The translations under genes and the position numbers were made by a program. Under the pieces are notes generated by a model. It had not been told where the DNA came from. It saw only the letters and a program-made list of their open reading frames with translations, and ran no database searches. This document shows positions 34,188 through 53,791 of a stretch of 53,982 nucleotides of DNA, piece by piece; the stretch's first letter is position 1; each line of letters opens with the position of its first letter. Source of the DNA: Bacilli bacterium (GTDB lineage: Bacteria > Bacillota_I > Bacilli_A > RF39 > UBA660); the NCBI GenBank assembly GCA_036667875.1, contig JAVWTD010000004.1, forward strand, positions 1-53,982, read 5' to 3'.

Positions 34188-34221
34188 TAATTTAAAGTTA
34201 TATAAAGTAGAAAGGTAATAT

Positions 34222-34356
34222 GACTAGCGCCAGACCATTATGGTGACGAGGATTAGTAGTTATCGATTTTTCGGCGGATGCTACTACGGACAGATGAGTT
34301 CGTTAAATAATTAGTAAAAAATAAAATAAACATTATAACAAATCTAATTATTAATC
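34222..34356 (+). ncRNA. glmS leader: glmS ribozyme (GlcN6P-dependent self-cleaving riboswitch)
   Basis: Core AGCGCCAGACC...GGUGACGAGGAUUAGUAGUUAUCGAUUUUUCGGCGGAUGCUACUACGG matches the conserved AGCGCCAGAAC...GACGAGGAUGG...AUCGAAUUUUCGGCGGAUGCC. It lies directly upstream of glmS. The 3' boundary is approximate (AU-rich P4-like stem TAATTAG/CTAATTA). Confidence 0.85.
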
Positions 34357-34374
34357 ATTTAAAAGGAGAATTAT

Positions 34375-36147
34375 ATGTGTGGAATTGTTGGTTATGTAGG
34401 CAATAATTATAATGCAATAAATGTAATTATAGATGGGCTTACTAACCTAGAGTATAGAGGCTATGATTCAGCTGGTATAGCGTACTCTGAAGAAGGCTTA
34501 ATAAAAATCATAAAAGAAAAAGGCAAATTAGAAAACTTAAAAAAGAAATTAGATATGAATATACTATCTAATTTAGGTATAGGTCATACAAGATGGGCTA
34601 CACATGGAGAAGCTAACCTTGTAAATAGCCATCCTCATAAAGTTGGAAAAGTTACAATTGTTCATAATGGGATTATTGAAAACTATAGTGAAATTAAAGA
34701 AGAATTACGTGAAGCTGGATATAATTTTATTAGTGACACAGACTCAGAAGTAGGAGCAGCATTATTAGATAAAATATATAATGAAACAAAAAGCGTTGAA
34801 CAAACATTATCATTATTTTTAAAAAAAACAAGAGGAGCTTATGCTTTAGGTATAATAATTGATGGTGATAATCACTTATATGCATTAAAAAAAGATAGCC
34901 CTCTTATCATCGGAGTTGGAAACTCTGAAAACTTTATTTCATCTGATGTTCCCGCTATTTTAAAATATACAAATAAATATATTGTTCTTGAAGATTCTGA
35001 CTTTGCTAAAATAAGTGCAGATAAAATTATTGTATATGATAATAAAGTTGACATTAAAAAGTATGAAGTTAGAGAGTTTAAAGGAAAAAGTATAGATATA
35101 TCAAAAAACGGTTATGACCATTTTATGTTAAAAGAAATATATGAACAACCCGAAGTTATTAAAAATACATTTTCTAGTTTTGTAAAAGACAACAAATTAG
35201 ATTTAAATATTCCAAACTTAAATAAATATAGAAGAATTGATATTGTTGCATGTGGAAGTGCCTATCATGCAGGGTATGTTGGAAAAATGTTTATTGAGGA
35301 ATATGGTAATATAGAAGTAAATGTGGAAGTAGCATCTGAATATAGGTACAAGAAATTATTTTTAGATTCATCTGTTTTAGTAATTGTTATATCTCAATCT
35401 GGTGAGACTGCAGACACTTTAGCAGCACTAAAACTCGCTAAAAAAAGTGGATGCTTCACTATCGGTATAATAAATGTTGTAGAAAGCAGTATTGCTAGAC
35501 TTTGTGACAAAGTTTTATATACTAAAGCAGGTCCTGAGATAGCTGTAGCAACAACCAAAGGTTATACAAGTCAAGTGGCAATATTAGCTTTAATTGCAAT
35601 TCAATTATCAAACAAAAATATTGATGGTTTAAGAAAACTTCCAATCATCATGCAATCTATTTTAGATGATACAATTGAATATAAAGAAATAGCAAATAAA
35701 ATTTTTGACAAGGATCCTGTTTTCTTTATAGGAAGAGATATTGATTATGCTTTATGTATGGAAGGAAGTTTGAAATTAAAAGAAATTTCTTATATTAATT
35801 CAGCAGCATATAAAGCAGGAGAACTAAAACATGGTACCATCTCTTTAATAGAAAAAGGAACAATAGTAATAGCTATTATGACAGAACCAAAAATCATGGA
35901 AAAAACAATTAGTAATATAAAAGAGACTAAAGCAAGAGGTGCTTATGTCATATTAATTACAACATTAGATGTTAATCCTGAACAAGACTATTTTGATGAG
36001 GTAATATATGTACCTCGTACTGAAAAATTATTTCAACCTATGCTTACAGTTTTACCTTTACAACTTTTAGCATACGAAGTAGCTAAATTAAAAGGTTGTG
36101 ACATTGATAAACCCAAAAACTTAGCGAAATCTGTCACTGTTGAATAA
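34375..36147 (+). CDS. glmS: Glutamine--fructose-6-phosphate aminotransferase
   Basis: MCGIVGY N-terminal nucleophile, two SIS domains and a C-terminal KSVTVE. Confidence 0.97.
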   Translation: MCGIVGYVGNNYNAINVIIDGLTNLEYRGYDSAGIAYSEEGLIKIIKEKGKLENLKKKLDMNILSNLGIGHTRWATHGEANLVNSHPHKVGKVTIVHNGIIENYSEIKEELREAGYNFISDTDSEVGAALLDKIYNETKSVEQTLSLFLKKTRGAYALGIIIDGDNHLYALKKDSPLIIGVGNSENFISSDVPAILKYTNKYIVLEDSDFAKISADKIIVYDNKVDIKKYEVREFKGKSIDISKNGYDHFMLKEIYEQPEVIKNTFSSFVKDNKLDLNIPNLNKYRRIDIVACGSAYHAGYVGKMFIEEYGNIEVNVEVASEYRYKKLFLDSSVLVIVISQSGETADTLAALKLAKKSGCFTIGIINVVESSIARLCDKVLYTKAGPEIAVATTKGYTSQVAILALIAIQLSNKNIDGLRKLPIIMQSILDDTIEYKEIANKIFDKDPVFFIGRDIDYALCMEGSLKLKEISYINSAAYKAGELKHGTISLIEKGTIVIAIMTEPKIMEKTISNIKETKARGAYVILITTLDVNPEQDYFDEVIYVPRTEKLFQPMLTVLPLQLLAYEVAKLKGCDIDKPKNLAKSVTVE

Positions 36148-42766: not shown

Positions 42767-43528
42767 TTATTTCCTCCTTGTTTCTAATAACTTTATAGCT
42801 TCATTTTTTAAATTAAGAACTTTAAATTTATGATAATCTTTTTCTAATTCATTAAAATATACCAAAAAAACATTTTTAACTTTTATACTGGTACAATTCT
42901 CAATTAAGTATTTATAAATATTTAATTGAAGTGAATAATGAATATAATTGCAGTCTTCTATATTGTCTATTGGATAGAGCATCTTTTTATTATTAAAACT
43001 ATTAAATTTAATTTCTTTATTAGTCTTATAATCAATTAGTACCAGTGTATCACTATCTTTATTTATTAAAAGATTGTCTATACTTCCAGCTATATCATAT
43101 TCTATACTTCCTACTATAAATTCATCCCTAAATATTTTTAAAGTGTCTTTATGGTCAAGATAGAATTTTTTAGCCTGAATGCAACTGTTTTCTACTGATT
43201 TCTTTAAAGATTCAATATCTAACTCTTTATATTGATCATAATTTAATTCTACTTCTTCATCATTCCATAGTGCTTGAGCATAAAGATGAACAAGAGTACC
43301 CTTAGCAGTTGAATATAAATTATCTAAACGCCATTTTTCTAAAATCTCACTTTGAGGAATATTAAGTTTTTCAGATTGCCTTTTACTTAACCCCTCTTTA
43401 TCAAAGACATTTGAGTATTCATGTATTAGAGTTGTTACGCTAGTTCCTACTCTTTTACCATCAAGTTCATAATGATGGTCTTCTGGATAAAAAACATATC
43501 CTTTGAATGCTTCTTCTAATTCATTCAT
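42767..43528 (-). CDS. PD-(D/E)XK-superfamily nuclease-like protein
   Basis: GSIDNL...LVLIDYKTNKE...YSLQLNIYKYL fits the D...(D/E)xK...QxxxY pattern of RecB/Cas4/YqaJ-like nucleases. Confidence 0.5.
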   Translation of the reverse strand: MNELEEAFKGYVFYPEDHHYELDGKRVGTSVTTLIHEYSNVFDKEGLSKRQSEKLNIPQSEILEKWRLDNLYSTAKGTLVHLYAQALWNDEEVELNYDQYKELDIESLKKSVENSCIQAKKFYLDHKDTLKIFRDEFIVGSIEYDIAGSIDNLLINKDSDTLVLIDYKTNKEIKFNSFNNKKMLYPIDNIEDCNYIHYSLQLNIYKYLIENCTSIKVKNVFLVYFNELEKDYHKFKVLNLKNEAIKLLETRRK

Positions 43529-43581: not shown

Positions 43582-44553
43582 TTAATTTTCTGCTTCTTCT
43601 AGCATATTAGTTATTAGTATTCCATAGCCTTTTTTAGGATCATTGATAACAACGTGGGTTATTGCACCAATAATTTTATTATCTTGAATAATCGGAGAAC
43701 CACTCATTCCCTGAACGATTCCTCCAGTCTTATTTAATAAAGAAGGGTCTATTACTTCAAACATAATATTTTTTGTTTTATCTGAAATATTTATTTTAGT
43801 TATATTGATTTTATATTTTAAGACTTCATTTAAATTAAGGACGGTTAGTATTTCTGCTTCACCTGTTTTTACTTCAGATGGTTTAGCAACTTTTAACAAA
43901 TTATTATTATTAATATTTATTTCATAATTTCCAAATATACCTTTATTGGTATTTTCAAAAATATGACCAAAGATATTTGAAGAGTCGTACCTAGAATTCT
44001 TTTCTCCAGGTGTTCCTGGTTCACTTCTTTCTATACCTACAACTTCTGAATTAAAGATTGTTCCATCATTTGTCTTTATTATATCTCCTGATTGAGAGTC
44101 TATTATTTCATGCCCTAATGCTCCAAATAATTTAGTATTTGGATCAATATATGTAAGTGTACCTATTCCAGTTATACTATCTTTTACATATAGCCCTGTT
44201 TTACATATACCATTATCTTGTTTTAAGTTTAAGGTTGTTTTTAAGGGTTTTAAGTTTCTTACTAATTCTATTTCTAGTTTAGTACAGTCTGAATTATTAA
44301 CTTTATTTGTAAGTTCTTCGACTGTTTTTATTTCTTGGTTTTCTACTTTTTTTATGGTGTCTCCTATTTTAATCGTATTATCAGCATTTATAATATAGTC
44401 ACCAATTTTGTATGAACCAACAATTAAAACTCCTTCAGTTTTAATGTTAATTCCAATATTCTCCCCACTAGCAATTATGTAGTCAGAATAAGCTTTTGCA
44501 GTAAAAGGAATACATAACAATATACTTAAGAATAAACTAAAATGTTTTTTAAT
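43582..44553 (-). CDS. spoIVB: SpoIVB sporulation signalling serine peptidase (S55), probable ATT start
   Basis: PDZ-like segment, GTLTYIDPNTKLFGALGHEI and the GMSGSPI catalytic Ser. The in-frame ATT at 44553, 8 nt after AAAGGAG, restores the signal peptide (M)KKHFSLFLSILLCIPFTAKA. Confidence 0.8.
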   Translation of the reverse strand: MKKHFSLFLSILLCIPFTAKAYSDYIIASGENIGINIKTEGVLIVGSYKIGDYIINADNTIKIGDTIKKVENQEIKTVEELTNKVNNSDCTKLEIELVRNLKPLKTTLNLKQDNGICKTGLYVKDSITGIGTLTYIDPNTKLFGALGHEIIDSQSGDIIKTNDGTIFNSEVVGIERSEPGTPGEKNSRYDSSNIFGHIFENTNKGIFGNYEININNNNLLKVAKPSEVKTGEAEILTVLNLNEVLKYKINITKINISDKTKNIMFEVIDPSLLNKTGGIVQGMSGSPIIQDNKIIGAITHVVINDPKKGYGILITNMLEEAEN

Positions 44554-44628
44554 TATATCAACTCCTTTGACTACTCTATTATTTTACCCTGTTTATTATA
44601 TTTTATGTGTCTAATTATGTCATTTATA

Positions 44629-44657
44629 TTGCACTATGTCTTTAAATGTTTTATAAT
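44629..44657 (+). promoter_or_regulatory. Sigma-A-type promoter TTGCAC-17-TATAAT for the phosphoesterase pair
   Basis: TTGCAC at 44629-44634 and TATAAT at 44652-44657. AGGAGG precedes the ATG at 44681. Confidence 0.55.
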
Positions 44658-44680
44658 GATGGTGAAAATAGGAGGTTTTT

Positions 44681-45658
44681 ATGGATAAAGAGTTGTTAGA
44701 TAAATTAAAAGATTTATCAAAAAAAGAGATTACTTTAGAAAAACTATGTAATATGTTAGGTTTAAGCAATCTTGAAGTTTTAGGTCTTATTAAGGAACTA
44801 GAAAAAGAAGGACTTAATATAAGTAAGATTGCAAAAGATGATGGAATTCATATTTTAAACAAAGGAGACGTTAATGAATTTAATGATAATCATTATAAAT
44901 TTGGAACAGATGAATACAATGAATTTAAATTTGCAGTAATATCTGATACAAGATTAGGATCAACTTCACAACAGTTATCAATCTTAAATGATATTTACAA
45001 AAAAGCTAATGAATTAGGAATTAAACATGTATTCCACTGTGGAAATATTAGTGAGGGTTTATATCCACTTACAAGTGAATATGCACCTACTTTGTTTGTA
45101 AGTGACACTATTATGCAAGCAAATTATATTGTTCAAAATTATCCATTTGTTGAGGGAATTAAGACATATTTTTTACTAGGAACAAAGGATATTACTCATT
45201 TAAAGAAAAAACAAATTGATATTGGTAAAATTATATCTGAGAGTAGAGAGGATATGATATATCTTGGAATTGATAGATGTAATATTGAAATTGATAAAGT
45301 AAAATTAGATTTAAGAAATGTAAAAGGGAAAAAAACATACACTGTATCATACAGAGCTCAAAAAATTATTGATGCTTTAAGAAGCGAAGATATTCCAGAC
45401 ATTATGATTTATGGTGGATTACTACAAATGGAGAGTTTTAAATATCGTGGAGTTAGATTAATTTCTTCCCCTTCTGTAGTTGCTACTACAAACGAAATGT
45501 TTAATAATGAAAACAATAATACAGTTGGTAATTGGTTTATAACTATAGTTACAAATAAAAAAGGAGAACTTGTAAAGGTAATACCTACAGCTGCTACTTA
45601 TTATAGTACAGATAAATTAGATTATCAAAAATCAAAAGTCTTAAGGGGGGAACAATAA
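44681..45658 (+). CDS. wHTH plus metallophosphoesterase-fold protein with degenerated catalytic motifs (pseudo-enzyme paralogue)
   Basis: Aligns along its whole length with the next ORF, but DxH reads DTR, GD reads GN, GNHD reads GTKD, and GHxH reads YGGL. Confidence 0.6.
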   Translation: MDKELLDKLKDLSKKEITLEKLCNMLGLSNLEVLGLIKELEKEGLNISKIAKDDGIHILNKGDVNEFNDNHYKFGTDEYNEFKFAVISDTRLGSTSQQLSILNDIYKKANELGIKHVFHCGNISEGLYPLTSEYAPTLFVSDTIMQANYIVQNYPFVEGIKTYFLLGTKDITHLKKKQIDIGKIISESREDMIYLGIDRCNIEIDKVKLDLRNVKGKKTYTVSYRAQKIIDALRSEDIPDIMIYGGLLQMESFKYRGVRLISSPSVVATTNEMFNNENNNTVGNWFITIVTNKKGELVKVIPTAATYYSTDKLDYQKSKVLRGEQ

Positions 45659-46644
45659 TGGATATGGATACTGCAAATAAATTCTACCGTTTAATAAAAA
45701 ATGGAATGACTCTAAAAGATATTGAAAACAAATTAGGAATAAAAGAAGTTGAAGTAATGGGTATGATTGAATTATGTAATATCTATGGAAAACAAATTGA
45801 ATTAGTAGTAGATAATAATGAATGCTGTGTAGTTAAAAAATCAAGCATTAAAAAAACTTCAAAAGAATTAAAACCAAGTTTAGATGAATTAATTCATACT
45901 AAATTATGTATAGTTTCAGATACTCATCTAGGCAATAATCGTCAACAATTACATTTATTAAACAAAGTTTACGAAGAAGCATATAAAAGAGAGATTGACA
46001 CAGTTCTTCACTGTGGAGACCTAGTAGATGGGGATTATACCTCTGTTAGAAAAGAACAGAAAAGATTGAATTTTTTACTAGGATTTGACCAACAATGTGG
46101 ATATGTTGTTGATATGTATCCAAGTGTAAATGGAATAACTACTAAATTTATTTTAGGAAGTCATGATGAAACTCATTTTAAAAATGGAGGTGCTACTATT
46201 GAAAAGTGGTTACCAAAATGTCGTAAAGACATGATTTTTCTAGGTCAAGATACGGCTGATATAGTTATAGACAAAGTTAAAATAACAATGGATCACCCAG
46301 GAGATGGATGTGCTCAAGGATTAAGTTACAAACCTCAAAAAAGAATCGATATTCTAGAAGTTGGAGCAAAACCAAGTGTTCTATTAATTGGACATTATCA
46401 TAAAAGCTATTACTTTAATTATAGAAATGTAAATGCTTTAATTGTTCCCGCTTTATGTGATAAGACTCAATTTCAACAAAAGAAAATGTTAACAAATGTT
46501 ATGGGTGCATATTTCCTTGATATTTATTCTGATGAAAAAGGAAATATTCAATATTTTATTCCAGAAGAAATGTCATTTGGACACAATGATGTTTGGGATG
46601 AAGCAGGAAAAGATATGAAGAAAGTAAAAAGACTAAGTATTTAG
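45658..46644 (+). CDS. wHTH plus calcineurin-like metallophosphoesterase (motifs intact)
   Basis: VSDTHLG, HCGDLVDG, LGSHDETH, MDHPG and IGHYH. The start overlaps the upstream stop (TAATG). Confidence 0.7.
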   Translation: MDMDTANKFYRLIKNGMTLKDIENKLGIKEVEVMGMIELCNIYGKQIELVVDNNECCVVKKSSIKKTSKELKPSLDELIHTKLCIVSDTHLGNNRQQLHLLNKVYEEAYKREIDTVLHCGDLVDGDYTSVRKEQKRLNFLLGFDQQCGYVVDMYPSVNGITTKFILGSHDETHFKNGGATIEKWLPKCRKDMIFLGQDTADIVIDKVKITMDHPGDGCAQGLSYKPQKRIDILEVGAKPSVLLIGHYHKSYYFNYRNVNALIVPALCDKTQFQQKKMLTNVMGAYFLDIYSDEKGNIQYFIPEEMSFGHNDVWDEAGKDMKKVKRLSI

Positions 46645-46653
46645 TCTTTTTTT
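46626..46653. terminator. Strong bidirectional intrinsic terminator
   Basis: 11-bp stem AAAAAGACTAA/TTAGTCTTTTT (46626-46636/46641-46651) with loop GTAT and T/A runs on both sides. The TAG stop lies inside the stem. Confidence 0.7.
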
Positions 46654-46867
46654 ATGAAATATTTTATTTATTTTTAGTGGGACAATAAAAAAAGGGCACA
46701 AAAACTTGGGATGTTTTCATACACCTGTTATACATTAAATTAAATTAATAAAAAATTAAAGTTTCCTAGTTATCCGATTTATAATGATTAAATAAATATA
46801 ATTTGGGCCGCATTTTTATATAGATAGATTGGTCTTAATGCTTACATTTATTTAGTAGTTTAAATAA

Positions 46868-46880
46868 TATATATATATAT
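46868..46880. repeat. (TA)n microsatellite
   Basis: tatatatatatat read directly from the sequence. Confidence 0.9.
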
Positions 46881-46953
46881 TAGTAAGTTGAATTTTGGGC
46901 TAATTCATCTTATTTTGATAAGTAAAATCTTGGGCTATCTTACTTATACTTTC

Positions 46954-46981
46954 ATTATACCATTTAAATTATATTAATCAA
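46954..46981 (-). promoter_or_regulatory. Sigma-A-type promoter with extended -10 (TTGATT-16-TGgTATAAT)
   Basis: Minus-strand TTGATT = 46981-46976 and TGGTATAAT = 46962-46954. It lies 29 nt downstream of the xseB stop. Confidence 0.4.
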
Positions 46982-47009
46982 CATATATTTACAAATTTTT
47001 ACATTTTAC

Positions 47010-47228
47010 TTATGATAATTCAAAATCTTTAAGTTCGCCGTCTTTTGAAACAATCTTTGTTATTTTTTCTTCAGCATCTTTTAATTCAATGTCACATTCT
47101 TTAATTAATTTCATTGCTTCAGTATATTTGTTTATTGAATCATCTAAATTTATTTCATCAAGTTCTAATTCTGCTACAATTTTTTCTAATATTTTCATTT
47201 TTTCTTCAAATTTCATATTATTCACCAT
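47010..47228 (-). CDS. xseB: Exodeoxyribonuclease VII small subunit
   Basis: FEEKMKILEKIVAELE...L.DSINKY.EAMKL. It lies immediately after xseA. An alternative ATG at 47216 has a GGTGA SD. Confidence 0.85.
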   Translation of the reverse strand: MVNNMKFEEKMKILEKIVAELELDEINLDDSINKYTEAMKLIKECDIELKDAEEKITKIVSKDGELKDFELS

Positions 47229-48555
47229 TTTTCCTTTTTACTTCTGCTTCTATATTGCCGTTAGATAATTTTACTTTAATTAAATCGTTTATTTTAACTT
47301 CATCAATACTTCCTAATACTTTATTTCCTATATAAGTTATACTATAACCTCTTTTTAGGATTGATATAGGGTTTAGTATTTCTAATTTATCCATTAATTG
47401 ATTGAAGTTATTTTTTGTTATTTTTAATTTATGACTTAACAATAAATTCAACTTATTTTTGCTTGTTTCAATAAATGTTTTGTTTTTAATTATTTTGTTA
47501 ATGGGATTTAAGTATTCCATTTGTTTATTTAAATTTAATACATTATTTATTGAGTTATCAAGTTTTTGTTTTAAAAGGGTTATTAGTTTTTCATTTAATA
47601 AATCTAATTTTTGTAGTTTATTATCAATAATTAATCTAGGATTTTTTATAACAAATGAATTTTTAATGTTATTAATTTTTAATTTATTAATGTTAAATTT
47701 TCGGTTCATGCTTTCATTTGTTCTTATATTTATTTGATTTAAATATTTTATTAAATCTATTAAGTTTGGTACGGCCTTTTCTGCTGCTCCTGTTGGAGTC
47801 TCAGCTCTGTAGTCTGCTACAAAGTCTGCTATTGTAAAGTCAACTTCATGTCCTGTTCCGCTTATAACGGGTATTCTACAGTTATAAATTGCTCTTGCTA
47901 CTATTTCTTCGTTAAAAGGCCAAAGGTCTTCAATTGACCCCCCACCTCGTCCTACTATGAGGATATCAAGGTTATAATTATTAGCAAGTTCAATGTTTCT
48001 TACAATATCAGTAGCAGCTCTTTCTCCTTGAACTAAACTTGGTAGAATTATTATTTCGGCTATTTTATAACGCCTTTTTATTGTTGATATTATATCTTTA
48101 ATTGCTGCTCCTGTAGGAGCTGTTATAACTCCAATTCTTTTTGGGAATTTGGGTATAGGCACTTTATGAGCCGGATCAAATAATCCTTCTTTTTTTAAAT
48201 CTTCTTTTAATTTCTCAAAAGCTATATAAAGGTTCCCTACTCCATCTTCAAGCATTTCTTCAATATATATTTGATAATTACCAGTTGATTCAAAAAGACT
48301 AATGTGCCCCATTACTAAAACTTTTGTTCCATCAGTTGGTTTAAACTTTAACTTTTTAGCATTTGTGCTAAACATTATTGCATTAATTTTAGATTTATCA
48401 TCTTTTAAGGAAAAATACATATGACCTGTAGAATGTCCCTTAAAATTAGATATTTCTCCCTTCAAAAAAACACATTTTAAGTGCTTATCCGAATCAAATT
48501 TATACTTTAAATATTTTGTTAATGAACTTATTGTTAGGTACTCTTTTTCTTTCAT
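47218..48555 (-). CDS. xseA: Exodeoxyribonuclease VII large subunit
   Basis: OB-fold N-terminus GEISNFK.HSTGHMYFSLKD, a GVITAPTGAAIKD core and a long helical C-terminus. Confidence 0.92.
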   Translation of the reverse strand: MKEKEYLTISSLTKYLKYKFDSDKHLKCVFLKGEISNFKGHSTGHMYFSLKDDKSKINAIMFSTNAKKLKFKPTDGTKVLVMGHISLFESTGNYQIYIEEMLEDGVGNLYIAFEKLKEDLKKEGLFDPAHKVPIPKFPKRIGVITAPTGAAIKDIISTIKRRYKIAEIIILPSLVQGERAATDIVRNIELANNYNLDILIVGRGGGSIEDLWPFNEEIVARAIYNCRIPVISGTGHEVDFTIADFVADYRAETPTGAAEKAVPNLIDLIKYLNQINIRTNESMNRKFNINKLKINNIKNSFVIKNPRLIIDNKLQKLDLLNEKLITLLKQKLDNSINNVLNLNKQMEYLNPINKIIKNKTFIETSKNKLNLLLSHKLKITKNNFNQLMDKLEILNPISILKRGYSITYIGNKVLGSIDEVKINDLIKVKLSNGNIEAEVKRKNGE

Positions 48556-48563
48556 AAGACCTC

Positions 48564-48965
48564 CTATTTTTGATGATAAACTTTGTCTAATACTCCATTA
48601 ATCATTTTTCTTACTTCGTCATCACTATATACTTTAGCAAGTTCTATTGCTTCATTGATAGCAACAATTTCTGGTGTTTTTGTATATGTTAATTCATATA
48701 TACCCATTCTTAAAATAGCTTGATCAGTATTTCCTAATCTATTTATTTTCCAACCATTTAAGTATTTATTTGCTAATTCATCTATTTCATTACGATATGT
48801 AATTACTCCATATACTACTTCTTTTACAAACTCATTGTCTATTTCTGATGTTTCTTTTATTACTTCATTAATATCATATTCAATTTTATTGTTATCATAA
48901 ACATTTAGTTGATAAAGAATTGTCATTATTTTTTTTCTTAATTCACTTCTATTCATTTGTTCCAT
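48564..48965 (-). CDS. nusB: Transcription antitermination factor NusB
   Basis: [14 protein letters not shown]...[10 protein letters not shown]...INEAIELAK. Confidence 0.9.
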
Positions 48966-49016
48966 CTAAAAATCACCTCTAATCATTATAGCATATAAAC
49001 TTTAAAATAAAATATT

Positions 49017-49403
49017 TTATATATATTTTTCAGCTTTTCCTTCATAAATTTTAATTATTGTTGCTATAGAAAGATAGAAAAACATTACTAATAATAATAT
49101 CCATCCTATAATAGGGACAATAAATAAAACTATCCATACATAAGGTGAAAGATATAATTCTTTTCCAGATACTTCAAGTTTAAATGCTACTTGACAAGTC
49201 ATTTGAATTAGTAAAACCATTGCCATTATAGCAAGAGGAAATCCACAGCAAAGAGCTCCTAGAATCCAATTTTTATAATTTGCATACCATGCATTTTTAT
49301 CAAAACAATTTAATAAAGCTGCTAATACTAATACTGAAGTTCCACCTGTAAATAATTGAAGTAGTAACCAAACCCACCAATTTTCTTTTTTTATTATTTC
49401 CAT
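49017..49403 (-). CDS. Four-TM membrane protein (hypothetical)
   Basis: Hydrophobic 128-aa ORF between dxs and nusB. Confidence 0.5.
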   Translation of the reverse strand: MEIIKKENWWVWLLLQLFTGGTSVLVLAALLNCFDKNAWYANYKNWILGALCCGFPLAIMAMVLLIQMTCQVAFKLEVSGKELYLSPYVWIVLFIVPIIGWILLLVMFFYLSIATIIKIYEGKAEKYI

Positions 49404-49427
49404 TAAACATACCTCCCTTATTATGTA

Positions 49428-51278
49428 TTATATCATATTCTTAATCTTTTTAGATATACTTTTATAATCTAGTTCTAAAAACTCTAAAATTTTATCAGTA
49501 TTACCTTGTTTTACAAATATATCGTTTACAGCAAATATTTTCATCTTTGGAGTATAACCATTATTAATTGCATAAGTACTTAAAATACTTCCTAAAGAAC
49601 CCGTTAAAGAACTTTCTTCATATATAAATATGGGCGTATTTAAATTTAGAATTTCTTTAAACATTTTTATATCAAATGGCTTTATAAATCGTGAATTAAC
49701 TACATTAAGGTCTAATTCTTCTCCAATTAGAAGGGCAGTATTTAAGAAATCTCCATAAGAAATAATTGTTCCTTTTGTTCCTACCTTTAGTTTGTCCCAT
49801 TTTCCTATTTCTAATAATTTATAGTCTTCATATTTATATTCTATTTTAGCCCTTGAATACCTTATAGCTACAGGATGATTAATATTAAAGGCAGTGTAAA
49901 GCATGTTGCCAGCCTCAACAGAATTTGATGGAGCCATTATAATCATATTAGGTATATGACTTAAAAGGGCTATATCGTAAATACCTTGATGAGTCTCTCC
50001 ATCATCTCCAACAATACCTGCTCTATCTATACCAATAACAACATTTGTATCCATTCTTGCAATATCTTGATTTATTTGATCATATCCTCTTTGAAGAAAA
50101 GTTGAATAAATTGAAACAAATGGTTTTTTTCCAGATAAGGCAATTGCATTTGCTAAAACTAAAGCATGTTCTTCTGCTATTCCTACATCAATAAAATGTT
50201 TAGGATATTTTTCTTTAAATTTATTTAATTTTGAGCCATTAGCCATAGCGGGTGTAATTGCTATTATTTTATTGTTTAATTCTTTTATATTTATTAAATG
50301 ATTAGATATTATCTCACTCCATGATGTAAGATTATCTTTCTTTTTAAGTACTTTCCCTGTTTCTTTATCAAAAGGTGCAATTCCATGCCACACTCCTTCA
50401 ATATCTTCTTCAGCATATTTATATCCTTTTCCTTTTTCAGTTATAACATGAAGAAGAACAGGTCTTTGTCTTTTTTTTGCTAATTCTAAATATAGAAGCA
50501 TTTCATCGTAATCGTGCCCATTTATTGGTCCAAAGTAATCAAGACCAAGTTCTTCAAAAAGATATCCTTCTTTCATATAAATTTTTTTGAATGATTCTTT
50601 TATTAGTTTTAATCCGGTTCCTACTTTTTTGCCGAGATATGGAATTTTTCCAATGACTCCTTTTGTATCTGTTTTAGCAATTTCATATTTATAGTTTGTT
50701 CTTATTTTATCTAATGTATTATGAATGGCTCCAACATTTTTAGATATACTCATTTCATTATCATTTAGAATTACAATTAGTTTAGTATTAAGTGAACCAA
50801 TGTGGTTTAATGCTTCATACGCTAGACCATTACCTATTGAACCATCTCCAATTACTGCTATTATATTGTTTTTCTTTTTGTCTAAATCTCTTGAAATGGC
50901 AAAACCAAGACAAGCACTTAGACTAGTAGATGAGTGACCTGCTTCATAGGAATCATGTGGGGATTCATTTCTTTTTTGAAATCCAGATAAACCATTAAAT
51001 TGTCTTAGCGTATCAAATTTATTAGCTCTTCCTGTAAGTATTTTATGGGTATAGGCTTGGTGTCCTACGTCAAAAATTATCTTATCTTTTGGGCTATCAA
51101 ATGTTTTATGGATAGCTATTGTTAAATCAACAATTCCAAGATTTGAAGATAGATGACCTCCTGTTTTGGAAATACTATCTATTAGAAATTTTCTTATATT
51201 TTTTGCTAGTTCTTCTAGTTCTTCTTTTTTTAATTTCTTTAAAAATTTAGGGTCTTTTATTTCTTCTATTTTCATCAT
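49428..51278 (-). CDS. dxs: 1-deoxy-D-xylulose-5-phosphate synthase
   Basis: GGHLSSNLG, GHSSTSLSA, IGDGS...NDN and transketolase C-terminal domains. Confidence 0.95.
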   Translation of the reverse strand: MMKIEEIKDPKFLKKLKKEELEELAKNIRKFLIDSISKTGGHLSSNLGIVDLTIAIHKTFDSPKDKIIFDVGHQAYTHKILTGRANKFDTLRQFNGLSGFQKRNESPHDSYEAGHSSTSLSACLGFAISRDLDKKKNNIIAVIGDGSIGNGLAYEALNHIGSLNTKLIVILNDNEMSISKNVGAIHNTLDKIRTNYKYEIAKTDTKGVIGKIPYLGKKVGTGLKLIKESFKKIYMKEGYLFEELGLDYFGPINGHDYDEMLLYLELAKKRQRPVLLHVITEKGKGYKYAEEDIEGVWHGIAPFDKETGKVLKKKDNLTSWSEIISNHLINIKELNNKIIAITPAMANGSKLNKFKEKYPKHFIDVGIAEEHALVLANAIALSGKKPFVSIYSTFLQRGYDQINQDIARMDTNVVIGIDRAGIVGDDGETHQGIYDIALLSHIPNMIIMAPSNSVEAGNMLYTAFNINHPVAIRYSRAKIEYKYEDYKLLEIGKWDKLKVGTKGTIISYGDFLNTALLIGEELDLNVVNSRFIKPFDIKMFKEILNLNTPIFIYEESSLTGSLGSILSTYAINNGYTPKMKIFAVNDIFVKQGNTDKILEFLELDYKSISKKIKNMI

Positions 51279-53791
51279 TTACCTGCTTTATTTTGTAATT
51301 TGTATAATACATTAAGTGCTTCAAATGGGGTAGTATTCATTAAATCTAATTTTTTAATTTCTTCTTCTACTTCGTTTGGTACATCTAAAGGTAGTGCTTC
51401 TTGTATTAATATGTCTCTTTTATTTTCTTTATTTTCGTATATTTTTAATATTTCATCTGCTCTTTTTATTAGGCTATCTGGTAGGTTAGCAAGTTTAGCA
51501 ACATGAATTCCATAACTTTTTGACACACTACCGTCTTTAATTTTATGTAAAAATGTTATGTTACCTTCTTCTTCGTATGCACTAACATGAATATTTTTAA
51601 GTCCTTTTAATGTTTTATCTAGGTCTGTTAATTCATGATAATGGGTTGAAAAGAATGTTCTTGCTCCTATATTTTTATTAATATATTCTATTATTGATTG
51701 TGCTAGCGACATGCCATCAAATGTGGCTGTTCCTCTTCCTAGTTCATCAAATAATATTAAACTATTTTTTGTTGCATTTTTTATAGCGTAGTTTGCTTCT
51801 AGCATTTCAACCATAAATGTTGATTCTCCACTTACTAAATCATCTGATGCTCCAATTCTTGTGTATATTGCATCAAAAAGTGGAATAACTGCTTTTTCTG
51901 CTGGTACAAAACAACCTATTTGAGCCATAATTGATGTAATTGCTATTTGACGCATAAAAGTACTTTTCCCTGCCATATTTGGTCCAGTTATGAGAAGAAT
52001 ATTAGTATCTTTGTCCATTTTTATATCGTTTGGTACAAATTCTTTTTCAAGAACTTTTTCAACTACAGGGTGTCTATTATTTTTAACGTCAATAATATCT
52101 CCTAGAATTGGTCTAACATAGTTATTTTCTTCTGTAACTGTTGCAAAAGATTGCAGAACATCTACTTCACTTATTATTTTGGATATGTTTTGTAGTTTAG
52201 GGATAAATTCTTTTATTTTTTCTCTTATAGAAACAAACAAATTATATTCAAGTTCAATAATTCTTTCTTCAGCGTTTAAAATTAGGGCTTCTTTTTCTTT
52301 TAGAATAGGACTTATATATCTTTCACAATTAGATAGAGTTTGTCTTCTTTCATATCCATATTCTTCTTTAACAAGTCCTATATTTCCTTTTGAAACTTCA
52401 ATATAATAACCAAAAACTTTATTAAATCCTATTTTTAAATTTTTAATTCCCGTTCTTTCTTTTTCACTTGCTTCAAAAGCAGCAACAAAATCTTTGCCGC
52501 CTTTTCTTAAACTTTTGAGTAAATCAAGTTCTTCATTATATCCTTCTTTTATTAAATATCCTTCTTTGACTGCAACTGGAGGATTTTCATAAATACTATT
52601 TAGTAAAATTTCATATAAATTGTCTAGCGGTTCTAATTTTTTATAGAATTTTATGCTTTCTAATAAGTCTTTTATAGCGGGCATTACTTTTAGTGAATTT
52701 CTGAGTTGGATTAAATCTCTAGCGTTTGCACTTCCAAAGGCTATTCTTCCACTTAATCTTTCTAAATCATAGACCTCATCTAGTAAATCTTGTAAGTCAA
52801 TTCTTGTTAAGAATTCTTTTAATAAAATTTGAACCATATCATATCTTTTTTCAATAACTTGTTTATTTACTAATGGATTTTCTATAAAGTTCTTAAGCAT
52901 TCTAGCACCACTAGCGGTTTTTGTCTTATCAAGAAGCCATAGAAGAGAATAAGTTCTTTCTTTTAGTCTTAAAGTTTCAGTTAATTCAAGATTTCTTTTG
53001 GTATGGATATCCATTTTCATTGTTTCATTAAATTCAATTATTTTTGCTTCTTGCAAGTGAGACAAATAACTCATTTGGGTTTCAAAAATATATGTTAAAA
53101 GATGGTTAATGGTTGTGATAAGACGCATGTCTCCTACATTTTTTGTAACTCCATTATATTCTTTAAATGATTTTATATCATCTCTTATAGTTACTATTAT
53201 GGAATAATTATTTTTTAATTTATTTATTATTTCTTTTTCTGTTTCAGAATTAGTAATTATTTCTTTTATTTTAAATGATAAGATTCGACTGATTATTTCT
53301 TCTTTTGGAATAATACAGGTATATATTTCACCTGTAGAAATATCACAGTAACTAACAGCATATTCTTCATTAAATGGTATTATGCTTCCAATATAATTAT
53401 TTTCATTATCTTTTAAAGACTCACTATTCATGACTGTTCCTATTGAAACTATTCGAGTAAGCCCACGCTCTACAATTCCCTTTGAACTTGAAGGATCTTC
53501 AAGTTGTTCACAGATTCCTACTTTATATCCTTTTTCTACTAGTCTTTCAATATATATGTTTGATGCATGATGTGGAACTCCACACATTGGAATTTTTTCT
53601 TCAAGTCCAGCACTCTTTCCTGTTAGAGTTAATTCAAGTTCTCTTGATACATTTATTGCGTCTTCAAAAAACATTTCATAAAAATCTCCAAGTCTAAAAA
53701 AGATAATAATATCTTCATTTTTGTTTTTTATTTCTAGGTATTGTTTCATCATTGGAGTTACTTTTGACATATCTACTTCGTTTCTTTTCAT
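51275..53791 (-). CDS. mutS: DNA mismatch repair protein MutS
   Basis: TPMMKQYLEIK, FYEMFFEDA, Walker A TGPNMAGKST and DELGRGT. AAGGGGGA precedes the ATG at 53791. Confidence 0.95.
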   Translation of the reverse strand: MKRNEVDMSKVTPMMKQYLEIKNKNEDIIIFFRLGDFYEMFFEDAINVSRELELTLTGKSAGLEEKIPMCGVPHHASNIYIERLVEKGYKVGICEQLEDPSSSKGIVERGLTRIVSIGTVMNSESLKDNENNYIGSIIPFNEEYAVSYCDISTGEIYTCIIPKEEIISRILSFKIKEIITNSETEKEIINKLKNNYSIIVTIRDDIKSFKEYNGVTKNVGDMRLITTINHLLTYIFETQMSYLSHLQEAKIIEFNETMKMDIHTKRNLELTETLRLKERTYSLLWLLDKTKTASGARMLKNFIENPLVNKQVIEKRYDMVQILLKEFLTRIDLQDLLDEVYDLERLSGRIAFGSANARDLIQLRNSLKVMPAIKDLLESIKFYKKLEPLDNLYEILLNSIYENPPVAVKEGYLIKEGYNEELDLLKSLRKGGKDFVAAFEASEKERTGIKNLKIGFNKVFGYYIEVSKGNIGLVKEEYGYERRQTLSNCERYISPILKEKEALILNAEERIIELEYNLFVSIREKIKEFIPKLQNISKIISEVDVLQSFATVTEENNYVRPILGDIIDVKNNRHPVVEKVLEKEFVPNDIKMDKDTNILLITGPNMAGKSTFMRQIAITSIMAQIGCFVPAEKAVIPLFDAIYTRIGASDDLVSGESTFMVEMLEANYAIKNATKNSLILFDELGRGTATFDGMSLAQSIIEYINKNIGARTFFSTHYHELTDLDKTLKGLKNIHVSAYEEEGNITFLHKIKDGSVSKSYGIHVAKLANLPDSLIKRADEILKIYENKENKRDILIQEALPLDVPNEVEEEIKKLDLMNTTPFEALNVLYKLQNKAGK

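Follow-up and report, generated by a model that had tools for sequence, protein, structure and literature searches.

What is a degenerate copy of a phosphoesterase kept for, next to an intact one? This question was raised by two adjacent genes in a stretch of 53,982 nucleotides (nt) from an uncultured gut Bacilli bacterium (GenBank assembly GCA_036667875.1, contig JAVWTD010000004.1), hereafter called the window, to which all coordinates without a locus number refer. The two open reading frames (ORFs), ORF1 and ORF2, each encode an N-terminal winged helix followed by a phosphoesterase domain: ORF2 carries a nearly canonical set of metal ligands, and ORF1 has lost most of them. The analysis presented here suggests that the two products very probably form a complex and, with a probability of about 0.5, that this complex is a heterodimer which acts on DNA through a single active site.

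BLASTP aligned the two proteins end to end, with 31% identity over 315 amino acids (aa) and E=3e-45, as expected from the preliminary description of the pair as full-length paralogues. The stop and start codons overlap exactly where that description had placed them (Table 1), an arrangement predicted to couple the translation of ORF2 to that of ORF1.

AlphaFold monomer models of the two proteins (pLDDT 85 and 87; pTM 0.74 and 0.75) revealed the same build: an N-terminal winged helix of three helices and two strands (approximately residues 1-62), a short linker of low confidence and a phosphoesterase sandwich extending to the C-terminus. The helix-turn-helix-like module proposed for the start of each protein was thus recovered, as a winged-helix topology, in both models. 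Foldseek matched each model to more than 100 solved phosphoesterase structures with E values of 1e-3 or better.

ORF2 passed the gathering cut-offs of the Pfam families Metallophos and Metallophos_2 (PF00149 and PF12850), with 37.2 and 34.5 bits against 27 and 21.5, respectively. ORF1 remained under the gathering scores (13.6 bits, E=0.068), and no Pfam match was obtained for any member of the ORF1 family. The motif positions of ORF2 read D88-x-H90, G-D121, S168-H169-D170, H213 and G-H246-x-H248; those of ORF1 read D89-T-R91, G-N122, T-K169-D170, N213 and G-G246-L-L248. The earlier statement that ORF1 had lost every metal-binding motif is therefore correct for most ligands but too strong as it stands: the motif I and motif III aspartates remain and are both invariant. 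A smaller correction applies to ORF2, in which DxH, GD, H and GHxH are present as described, but Ser takes the place of the Asn that canonically binds metal in motif III (GSHD vs GNHD; codon 168, 46159-46161). This Ser was found in 100% of the clade; in the viral single-copy relatives described below the Asn is kept.

Conservation was counted in an alignment of 118 ORF1-family and 118 ORF2-family sequences. The ORF2 ligands D88, H90, D121, H169, D170, H213, H246 and H248 were conserved at 99-100%. In the ORF1 family the corresponding positions were occupied by R91 (97%), N122 (100%), K/R169, G246 (100%) and L248 (100%). Since these replacement residues are conserved at close to 100%, ORF1 is an ancient pseudo-enzyme that has been held under purifying selection. 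The change of His to Arg in motif I was the most constant trait of the ligand loss. Part of the ORF1-type proteins read D-R-D-E-H-D-H-H-L, so that the loss is incomplete in them; the decay was therefore stepwise.

Unnamed homologues with 50-76% identity were found by the hundreds for each protein (483 clusters for ORF2 and 422 for ORF1). The possibility that ORF1 is a decaying pseudogene was ruled out by the number of these clusters, by the invariant replacement residues and by the well-folded model.

Analysis of species-representative genomes showed the ORF1 orthologue immediately upstream of the ORF2 orthologue in 13 loci out of 13, down to 39% and 45% identity; the sources were metagenome-assembled genomes of uncultured Bacilli or Erysipelotrichaceae from gut or rumen. 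On long metagenome contigs the same order was observed in four loci (L014-L017; loci are cited by number where they have to be told apart), which represent two more arrangements. Adjacency in this order was found in all 16 cellular loci examined, the junctions ranging from an 8-nt overlap to a spacing of a few nt. This is in agreement with the obligate co-occurrence of the two genes that had been anticipated. Clustering of the neighbouring ORFs in the 16 loci returned no conserved gene besides the pair itself.

The family was also surveyed exhaustively: 1.84 billion representatives were searched with a profile, which yielded 2,853 members (clusters at 50% identity). Among the best 150 representatives, approximately 25 were fusion proteins of 640-870 aa in which the module occurs twice. 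All of these fusions had a degenerate N-terminal half (DRNKEDSGL, DRDEHDHHL or NNNKQDHRG) and an intact C-terminal half (DHDSHDHHH or DHDNHDHNH). Fusions occur in close and in distant relatives: proteins 59-65% identical to those of the window represent the same fusion cut off by contig ends, its halves being joined by a linker of some 25 residues, and locus L024 contains a single uninterrupted ORF of 679 aa under genetic code 11, the cluster of which includes several independent full-length copies. The open frame of L024 and the independent contigs carrying the same fusion ruled out gene-calling artefacts.

The constant gene order, the translational coupling and the repeated fusion in the same order are best read together as the signature of a physical complex between the dead and the live copy. 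The natural fusions strongly support such a complex and are the best genomic evidence that it may be obligate; on these grounds we consider it very probable that ORF1 and ORF2 assemble with each other.

We propose that the pair forms a pseudo-symmetric heterodimer with a single functional binuclear metal site, located in ORF2, and with ORF1 as the permanently inactivated partner. The family means of net charge, +6.0 for the ORF1 pseudo-domain and -2.1 for the ORF2 phosphoesterase domain, suggest a division of labor in which ORF1 would bind the substrate and ORF2 would carry out the chemistry; the basic pseudo-domain would most likely serve in substrate binding, positioning or regulation. The complex would be a nuclease of the DP1/Mre11 type that depends on metal and acts either as an exonuclease or in the processing of ends. 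The probability of about 0.5 given above applies to this proposal as a whole; the identification of the substrate as DNA is tentative and falls a little short of an even chance.

The choice of a nuclease was suggested by the nearest relatives. A named family was sought by profile and Foldseek searches, as the preliminary description had suggested, and for both proteins the nearest one was DP1, the small subunit of the archaeal polymerase PolD. DP1 was the best NCBIfam match of ORF2 (9e-7), of ORF1 (0.02) and of 8/10 other members scanned, with values of 8.6e-13 for the best member and 5e-9 for a halovirus protein. DP1 chains also came first in a profile search against PDB sequences (E=0.04), the aligned stretch running from GHxH through a common Y-R-x-V ... 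T-Q/E-F-Q-K segment. In the Foldseek searches DP1 was the top match of both models (6.4e-9 and 5.5e-9), followed by MJ0936, Vps29, Mre11 and LpxH; the search with ORF1 listed in addition the inactive eukaryotic B-subunits Pol12 and Dpb2. Among predicted viral structures (BFVD) the best match reached 7e-24, and several of the phage proteins found carried the automatic annotation 'DNA polymerase II small subunit'.

Membership of the DP1 family was not supported. The scores obtained with its model (NF003118 and relatives) were 28.2 bits for ORF2, 13.9 for ORF1 and 48 for the best member, against a cut-off of 445. The OB-fold domain was absent from both AlphaFold models, in which the winged helix ends at residues 61-63 and the phosphoesterase domain starts at residues 79-81. 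Because of the missing OB-fold and of scores so far under the cut-offs, the family is most fittingly called a sister clade of the DP1-type phosphoesterases, as yet without a name and with members in bacteria and viruses. No entry with this architecture was found in Pfam, NCBIfam, PADLOC, the PDB or the literature searched, which bears out the earlier impression that it belongs to no described system.

The likeness to DP1 and the B-subunits lies in the calcineurin-like phosphoesterase fold placed after a small N-terminal helical module, and in a common evolutionary theme, a version that is an active nuclease and a version with dead metal motifs kept as a structural subunit (Pol12, Dpb2 and p50 in the case of DP1). 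DP1 is known as a 3'-5' proofreading exonuclease of Archaea, whereas the ORF1/ORF2 family is bacterial and viral. Also, DP1 and the B-subunits have an OB-fold and a polymerase partner, while here live and dead copies are paired with, or fused to, each other.

Mre11/SbcD proteins are likewise binuclear metallophosphoesterases with motifs I-V, dimers on DNA ends are expected for both, and the viral relatives of ORF2 sit in recombination modules. The matches to Mre11 were weak (E of about 0.05 by sequence and about 5e-6 by Foldseek), and the TIGR00619 sbcd and NF041031 Mre11 models gave 18 and 26 bits in a few relatives, under cut-offs of 78 and 500, respectively. No Rad50/SbcC ATPase partner was adjacent in any locus examined, and no capping domain was recognised. 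Mre11 forms homodimers in which there are two active sites, whereas one site of the ORF1/ORF2 pair is dead.

A dead paralogue kept as an obligatory partner has a precedent in the prozymes of trypanosomatid AdoMetDC or DHS, as described in two reports (PMC5201418, PMC3663545). In both cases the dead paralogue is retained under selection beside the active copy. The fold and the chemistry of the prozymes are unrelated to those of the present pair, ORF1/ORF2 also occurs as a fused chain, and an activation of ORF2 by ORF1 is only putative. The pair combines known themes, the nuclease-like fold of a metallophosphoesterase and the company of an enzyme and its dead paralogue, and does not represent a new category.

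The viral members of the family point in the same direction as DP1. The best PHROG match of ORF2 and of all six viral relatives scanned was phrog_7339, 'DNA repair exonuclease' (2e-9 to 3e-16); the matches are modest and partial. Of the 150 best representatives of the family, most are unfused proteins of 300-410 aa in which the motifs are fully canonical; the N-terminus is often longer by 60-90 residues, as it is in the single-copy viral proteins. A scan of IMG/VR gave 59 loci, all of them at most 40% identical to ORF2 and 58 of them single-copy; the paired form was not found on these viral contigs. The only member detected in 50,697 deposited phage genomes is an unannotated protein of the Halorubrum tailed virus BLv36 (ORF43, hypothetical; L018:5572-6732), whose gene has a Mu-like portal gene on one side and the cement and capsid genes on the other.

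Two contexts were observed for the viral genes. The first is a recombination and replication context, with DUF1064 Holliday-junction resolvase, PD-(D/E)XK exonuclease, Sak4 or Sak, RusA and D5 primase-helicase genes. In the second, the gene stands immediately upstream of a small gene (terS; 109-165 aa), terL and the portal gene; this was found in at least eight loci (L040, L043, L048, L060, L062, L071, L081 and L083), and in L071 the relative directly abuts terL. Late regulators or HNH nucleases associated with the terminase are frequently encoded in this slot. Both contexts are DNA-transaction contexts, and the chromosomal pair was probably derived from a single-copy phage protein of recombination, replication or packaging.

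Some viral members were interrupted just after motif IV, inside a conserved G-S/S-Y segment: P0266 (approximately residues 232-500), P0353 (approximately 288-645) and the protein encoded at L083:1129-2999. The insert begins CFDD(K/Q)TEILT, in P0353 it ends ...SHN/S, and LAGLIDADG-like blocks lie within it; in sequence it looks like an intein with a homing endonuclease. A 660-aa phage protein labelled 'Hint/intein' was among the BFVD structural matches.

The control of the pair differs between lineages. In the window a probable promoter stands 24 nt before the start codon of ORF1 (Table 1), as the preliminary description had reported. Its -35 element, TTGCAC, has 3/6 consensus bases only, for which reason the promoter scanner does not list it; the presence of TTGATT-17-TATAAT at the equivalent position of L002, an orthologous locus with 65% identity, makes it plausible nevertheless. 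The TATGT(GT)C repeats that had been put forward as operators fared worse: the window contains four copies, with 2.8 expected by chance, and they are absent from L002. No conserved operator or palindrome was found upstream of the pair. At the other end, the probable intrinsic terminator is also missing from the scanner list, presumably because its stem has too few G-C pairs. The spacer between this terminator and the convergent xseB is AT-rich and non-coding (Table 1), and Rfam and tRNA scans of it for non-coding RNA were empty.

In most other lineages the region upstream of the ORF1 orthologue is organised in a constant order: an extended -10 promoter, a Shine-Dalgarno sequence with a leader ORF of 14-23 codons, a hairpin with a T-run and the Shine-Dalgarno sequence of ORF1. 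The hairpin and T-run start at or just past the leader stop codon and end directly at the Shine-Dalgarno sequence of ORF1. This leader region was found in L003-L017 and L024, about 60-130 nt upstream of the ORF1 orthologue (for example L016:6801-6949 and L012:4915-5012), and encodes peptides such as MQNKFFKIETPCKFKSYSKSALK and MKMFLKITTPFKM. The hairpin covaries, 9/10 of its pairs showing compensatory changes over 13 loci. Since the upstream gene in L016 is divergent, the hairpin cannot be the terminator of that gene. Judged by its sequence, the combination of leader ORF and hairpin looks like a ribosome-dependent transcription attenuator. It is absent from the corresponding region of the window (44521-44680); the window, L001 and L002 have the simple promoter instead.

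The reading of the complex as a DNA nuclease is the most likely one, supported by the DP1 affinity, phrog_7339, the viral DNA-transaction neighbours and the basic ORF1 pseudo-domain. Several observations weigh against it. The family has no characterised member, so that DNA is a predicted substrate, and metallophosphoesterases are notoriously promiscuous in this respect. The likeness to DP1 is weak, its Foldseek E-values being barely better than those of the generic phosphodiesterase MJ0936. The Ser of ORF2 occupies the position of a metal-binding Asn, and catalytic activity is assumed. The cellular pairs share no DNA-repair neighbours; the viral contexts are heterogeneous, and the halovirus copy lies in a head module. 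Finally, the leader attenuator present in most orthologous operons is untypical of DNA-repair genes and sits uneasily with a plain role in repair.

Four other explanations were weighed, and all of them appear unlikely. The one that survives best is an enzyme-linked transcription factor of the BirA/NiaR kind, in which the dead domain of ORF1 senses a ligand, ORF2 hydrolyses it and the winged helices bind DNA; the ligand would be a nucleotide or phosphodiester, such as an (oligo)nucleotide that serves as messenger in cyclic or linear form. Many metallophosphoesterases hydrolyse nucleotides, and models of the YfcE type and of cAMP phosphodiesterases were among the weak matches. The N-terminal modules are, as modelled, genuine winged helices: divergent fusions pass the Pfam cut-offs of HTH_24, HTH_11 and TrmB, and the BirA repressor-domain model was matched at 2e-8, while the proteins of the window remain under the Pfam helix-turn-helix cut-offs. 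The charge of the modules argues the other way. In the clade of the window, the family means of net charge are -3.5 for the winged helix of ORF1 and -0.3 for that of ORF2, the net charge around helix 3 is negative, and invariant Glu residues stand on this would-be recognition helix (in ORF2, E32, G35 and E38 are invariant). Acidic winged helices of this kind fit a role in protein contacts better than operator recognition. A regulator would also have to do without a conserved operator, the upstream repeats being unconserved and at chance level; in most lineages it is the leader-peptide attenuator that appears to control expression, and the viral relatives sit in DNA-transaction modules. We consider a transcription factor unlikely.

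In the heterodimer proposed here, contacts between proteins are a more probable role of the acidic winged helices than the recognition of specific DNA sequences. Hence the enzyme/pseudo-enzyme heterodimer of the preliminary description retains its pair, which is real, ancient, selected and always linked, and finds no support for its helix-turn-helix as a DNA-targeting domain. Absent from that description were the affinity to DP1, the large clade of single-copy viral proteins, the fusions and the leader-peptide attenuator of most other lineages.

Less probable still is that the pair is a polymerase accessory module, the counterpart of DP1 and the B-subunits, docked on a polymerase of replication or repair, with ORF2 proofreading in trans and ORF1 serving as scaffold. 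By sequence as well as by fold the nearest relative is consistently DP1, the dead copy matches Pol12 and Dpb2, the segment after GHxH is common to both and the phage relatives bear the name of the polymerase small subunit. In addition, the N-terminal domains of DP1 are protein-interaction modules according to one study (PMC9023282). If so, the inactivation that led from DP1 to the B-subunits would have been replayed independently in the dead/live pair, with a trans proofreading or end-trimming subunit and a scaffold, and its acidic winged helices would dock on a bacterial polymerase, replisome or recombination component; we regard both suggestions as improbable. The pair has no OB-fold, its phosphoesterase domain starting about 18 residues past the winged helix, and scores far under the DP1 cut-offs. 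No polymerase gene, DP2 or PolB, was linked to it in any of the 16 cellular loci or of the more than 60 loci from viruses; one candidate, a 1,242-aa neighbour in the phage locus L019, was rejected as a tail fibre. Also, a jackhmmer survey of DP1 and B-subunit homologues found archaeal and eukaryotic groups only (PMC7544198).

It is similarly improbable that the pair forms a complex which is induced by translation stress and heals RNA ends or acts as a 2',3'-cyclic phosphodiesterase. This explanation would account for the leader, in which the stop codon of the leader ORF meets a covarying terminator hairpin in most operons, a design that senses ribosome behaviour. It has a precedent in bacterial Pnkp, where calcineurin-like domains heal RNA 3' ends. 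However, no RNA ligase, kinase or RtcB-type partner was found near the pair in the cellular loci examined, the nearest relatives are DNA nucleases and the clade of the window is without the attenuator.

Instead of having a housekeeping function, the pair might be a module of phage origin, domesticated or mobile, such as an anti-phage pair or a nuclease of packaging or recombination. This is suggested by the large single-copy viral clade, by a chromosomal position that varies between lineages and by a Bro-N gene near the pair in L016, but there is little chance of it, given that the viral matches are distant and unpaired, that the chromosomal pair has the GC content of its flanks and core genes around it, that no family member was matched on plasmids, and that hundreds of clusters at 55-65% identity are expected under vertical inheritance. 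The pair as plasmid or phage cargo was ruled out by the same negative plasmid and viral searches. PADLOC gave no support for a defence system: ORF2 was unmatched, and ORF1 matched only CasR, over the helix-turn-helix (E=0.025).

The functional meaning that had been attached to the slot between xseB and spoIVB was not upheld. This slot is common only to L001 and L002, the two closest lineages, and the pair lies elsewhere in all others. Core genes such as xseAB, nusB, spoIVB and hisS flank it. In the window, the minus-strand block beyond the pair (Table 1) includes dxs on the other side and lacks folD, ispA, ahrC and recN; the order in B. subtilis is nusB-folD-xseA-xseB-ispA-dxs-...-recN-spoIVB. 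With the order already rearranged as mutS-dxs-nusB-xseAB, and with the slot restricted to two other loci, a replacement of recN by the pair was ruled out as well.

As had been noted, ORF1 and ORF2 are two of only three plus-strand genes in the window: besides glmS, all other plus-strand ORFs of at least 100 aa overlap longer ORFs of the minus strand. A glmS ribozyme (78.9 bits, E=1.5e-16) stands directly upstream of glmS. A PD-(D/E)XK, Cas4-like nuclease gene, located between spoIVB and maf, adjoins spoIVB in L002 too. In one lineage only (L014/L015:9074-9673), a 199-aa HTH_11+WYL regulator follows the ORF2 orthologue after 66 nt, on the same strand.

Table 1. Features of the ORF1-ORF2 operon and of neighbouring regions, by position in the window
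Feature	Position	Strand	Description	Basis
Promoter (probable)	44629-44657	+	TTGCAC (44629-44634), 17-nt spacer, TATAAT (44652-44657)	Read from sequence
Shine-Dalgarno of ORF1	44670-44675	+	AGGAGG	Sequence
ORF1	44681-45658	+	325 aa; dead paralogue, winged helix and pseudo-phosphoesterase	
ORF1 winged-helix module	44681-44866	+	aa 1-62; H3-12, H19-26, H30-42, E45-52, E55-63	AlphaFold topology
ORF1 pseudo-phosphoesterase domain	44918-45655	+	aa 80-325	Alignment, Foldseek
Shine-Dalgarno of ORF2	45643-45650	+	G-rich, within the 3' end of ORF1	Sequence
Stop/start overlap	45656-45660	+	TAATG; TAA of ORF1 and ATG of ORF2 have one A in common	Sequence
ORF2	45658-46644	+	328 aa; intact paralogue, winged helix and metallophosphoesterase	
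ORF2 winged-helix module	45658-45840	+	aa 1-61; H3-12, H19-26, H30-42, E47-51, E57-61	AlphaFold topology
ORF2 phosphoesterase domain	45892-46641	+	aa 79-328	Pfam, alignment
ORF2 ligand codon D88	45919-45921	+		
ORF2 ligand codon H90	45925-45927	+		
ORF2 ligand codon D121	46018-46020	+		
ORF2 codons S168-H169-D170	46159-46167	+		
ORF2 ligand codon H213	46294-46296	+		
ORF2 ligand codon H246	46393-46395	+		
ORF2 ligand codon H248	46399-46401	+		
Intrinsic terminator (probable)	46626-46653	+	Hairpin and U-run, overlaps ORF2 stop	RNA fold, -9.5 kcal/mol, z=-2.25
Downstream spacer	46654-47009		About 360 bp	
mutS, dxs, 128-aa ORF, nusB, xseA, xseB	47010-53791	-		
Cas4-like nuclease gene	42767-43528	-	253 aa	
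glmS ribozyme	34215-34361	+		
glmS	34375-36147	+		

The family defined here comprises 2,853 clusters and is conserved at 55-65% identity across a whole clade of gut Bacilli. It lacks a name, a Pfam or NCBIfam model of its own, a solved structure and any literature. Dead and live paralogues of a winged-helix phosphoesterase, either split and coupled or fused, make up an unusual architecture. If the complex is a nuclease in which one active site is joined by a dead subunit that binds the substrate, small-genome Firmicutes and their phages would have a novel way of processing DNA ends. Through its affinity to PolD DP1 the family is also relevant to how the polymerase B-subunits arose; should the pair be a replay of the inactivation from DP1 to B-subunit, a module of the archaeo-eukaryotic replisome would be extended to Bacteria and their viruses. 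The split and fused variants, together with the intermediate stages of ligand loss, make this family a good system for the study of pseudo-enzyme evolution.

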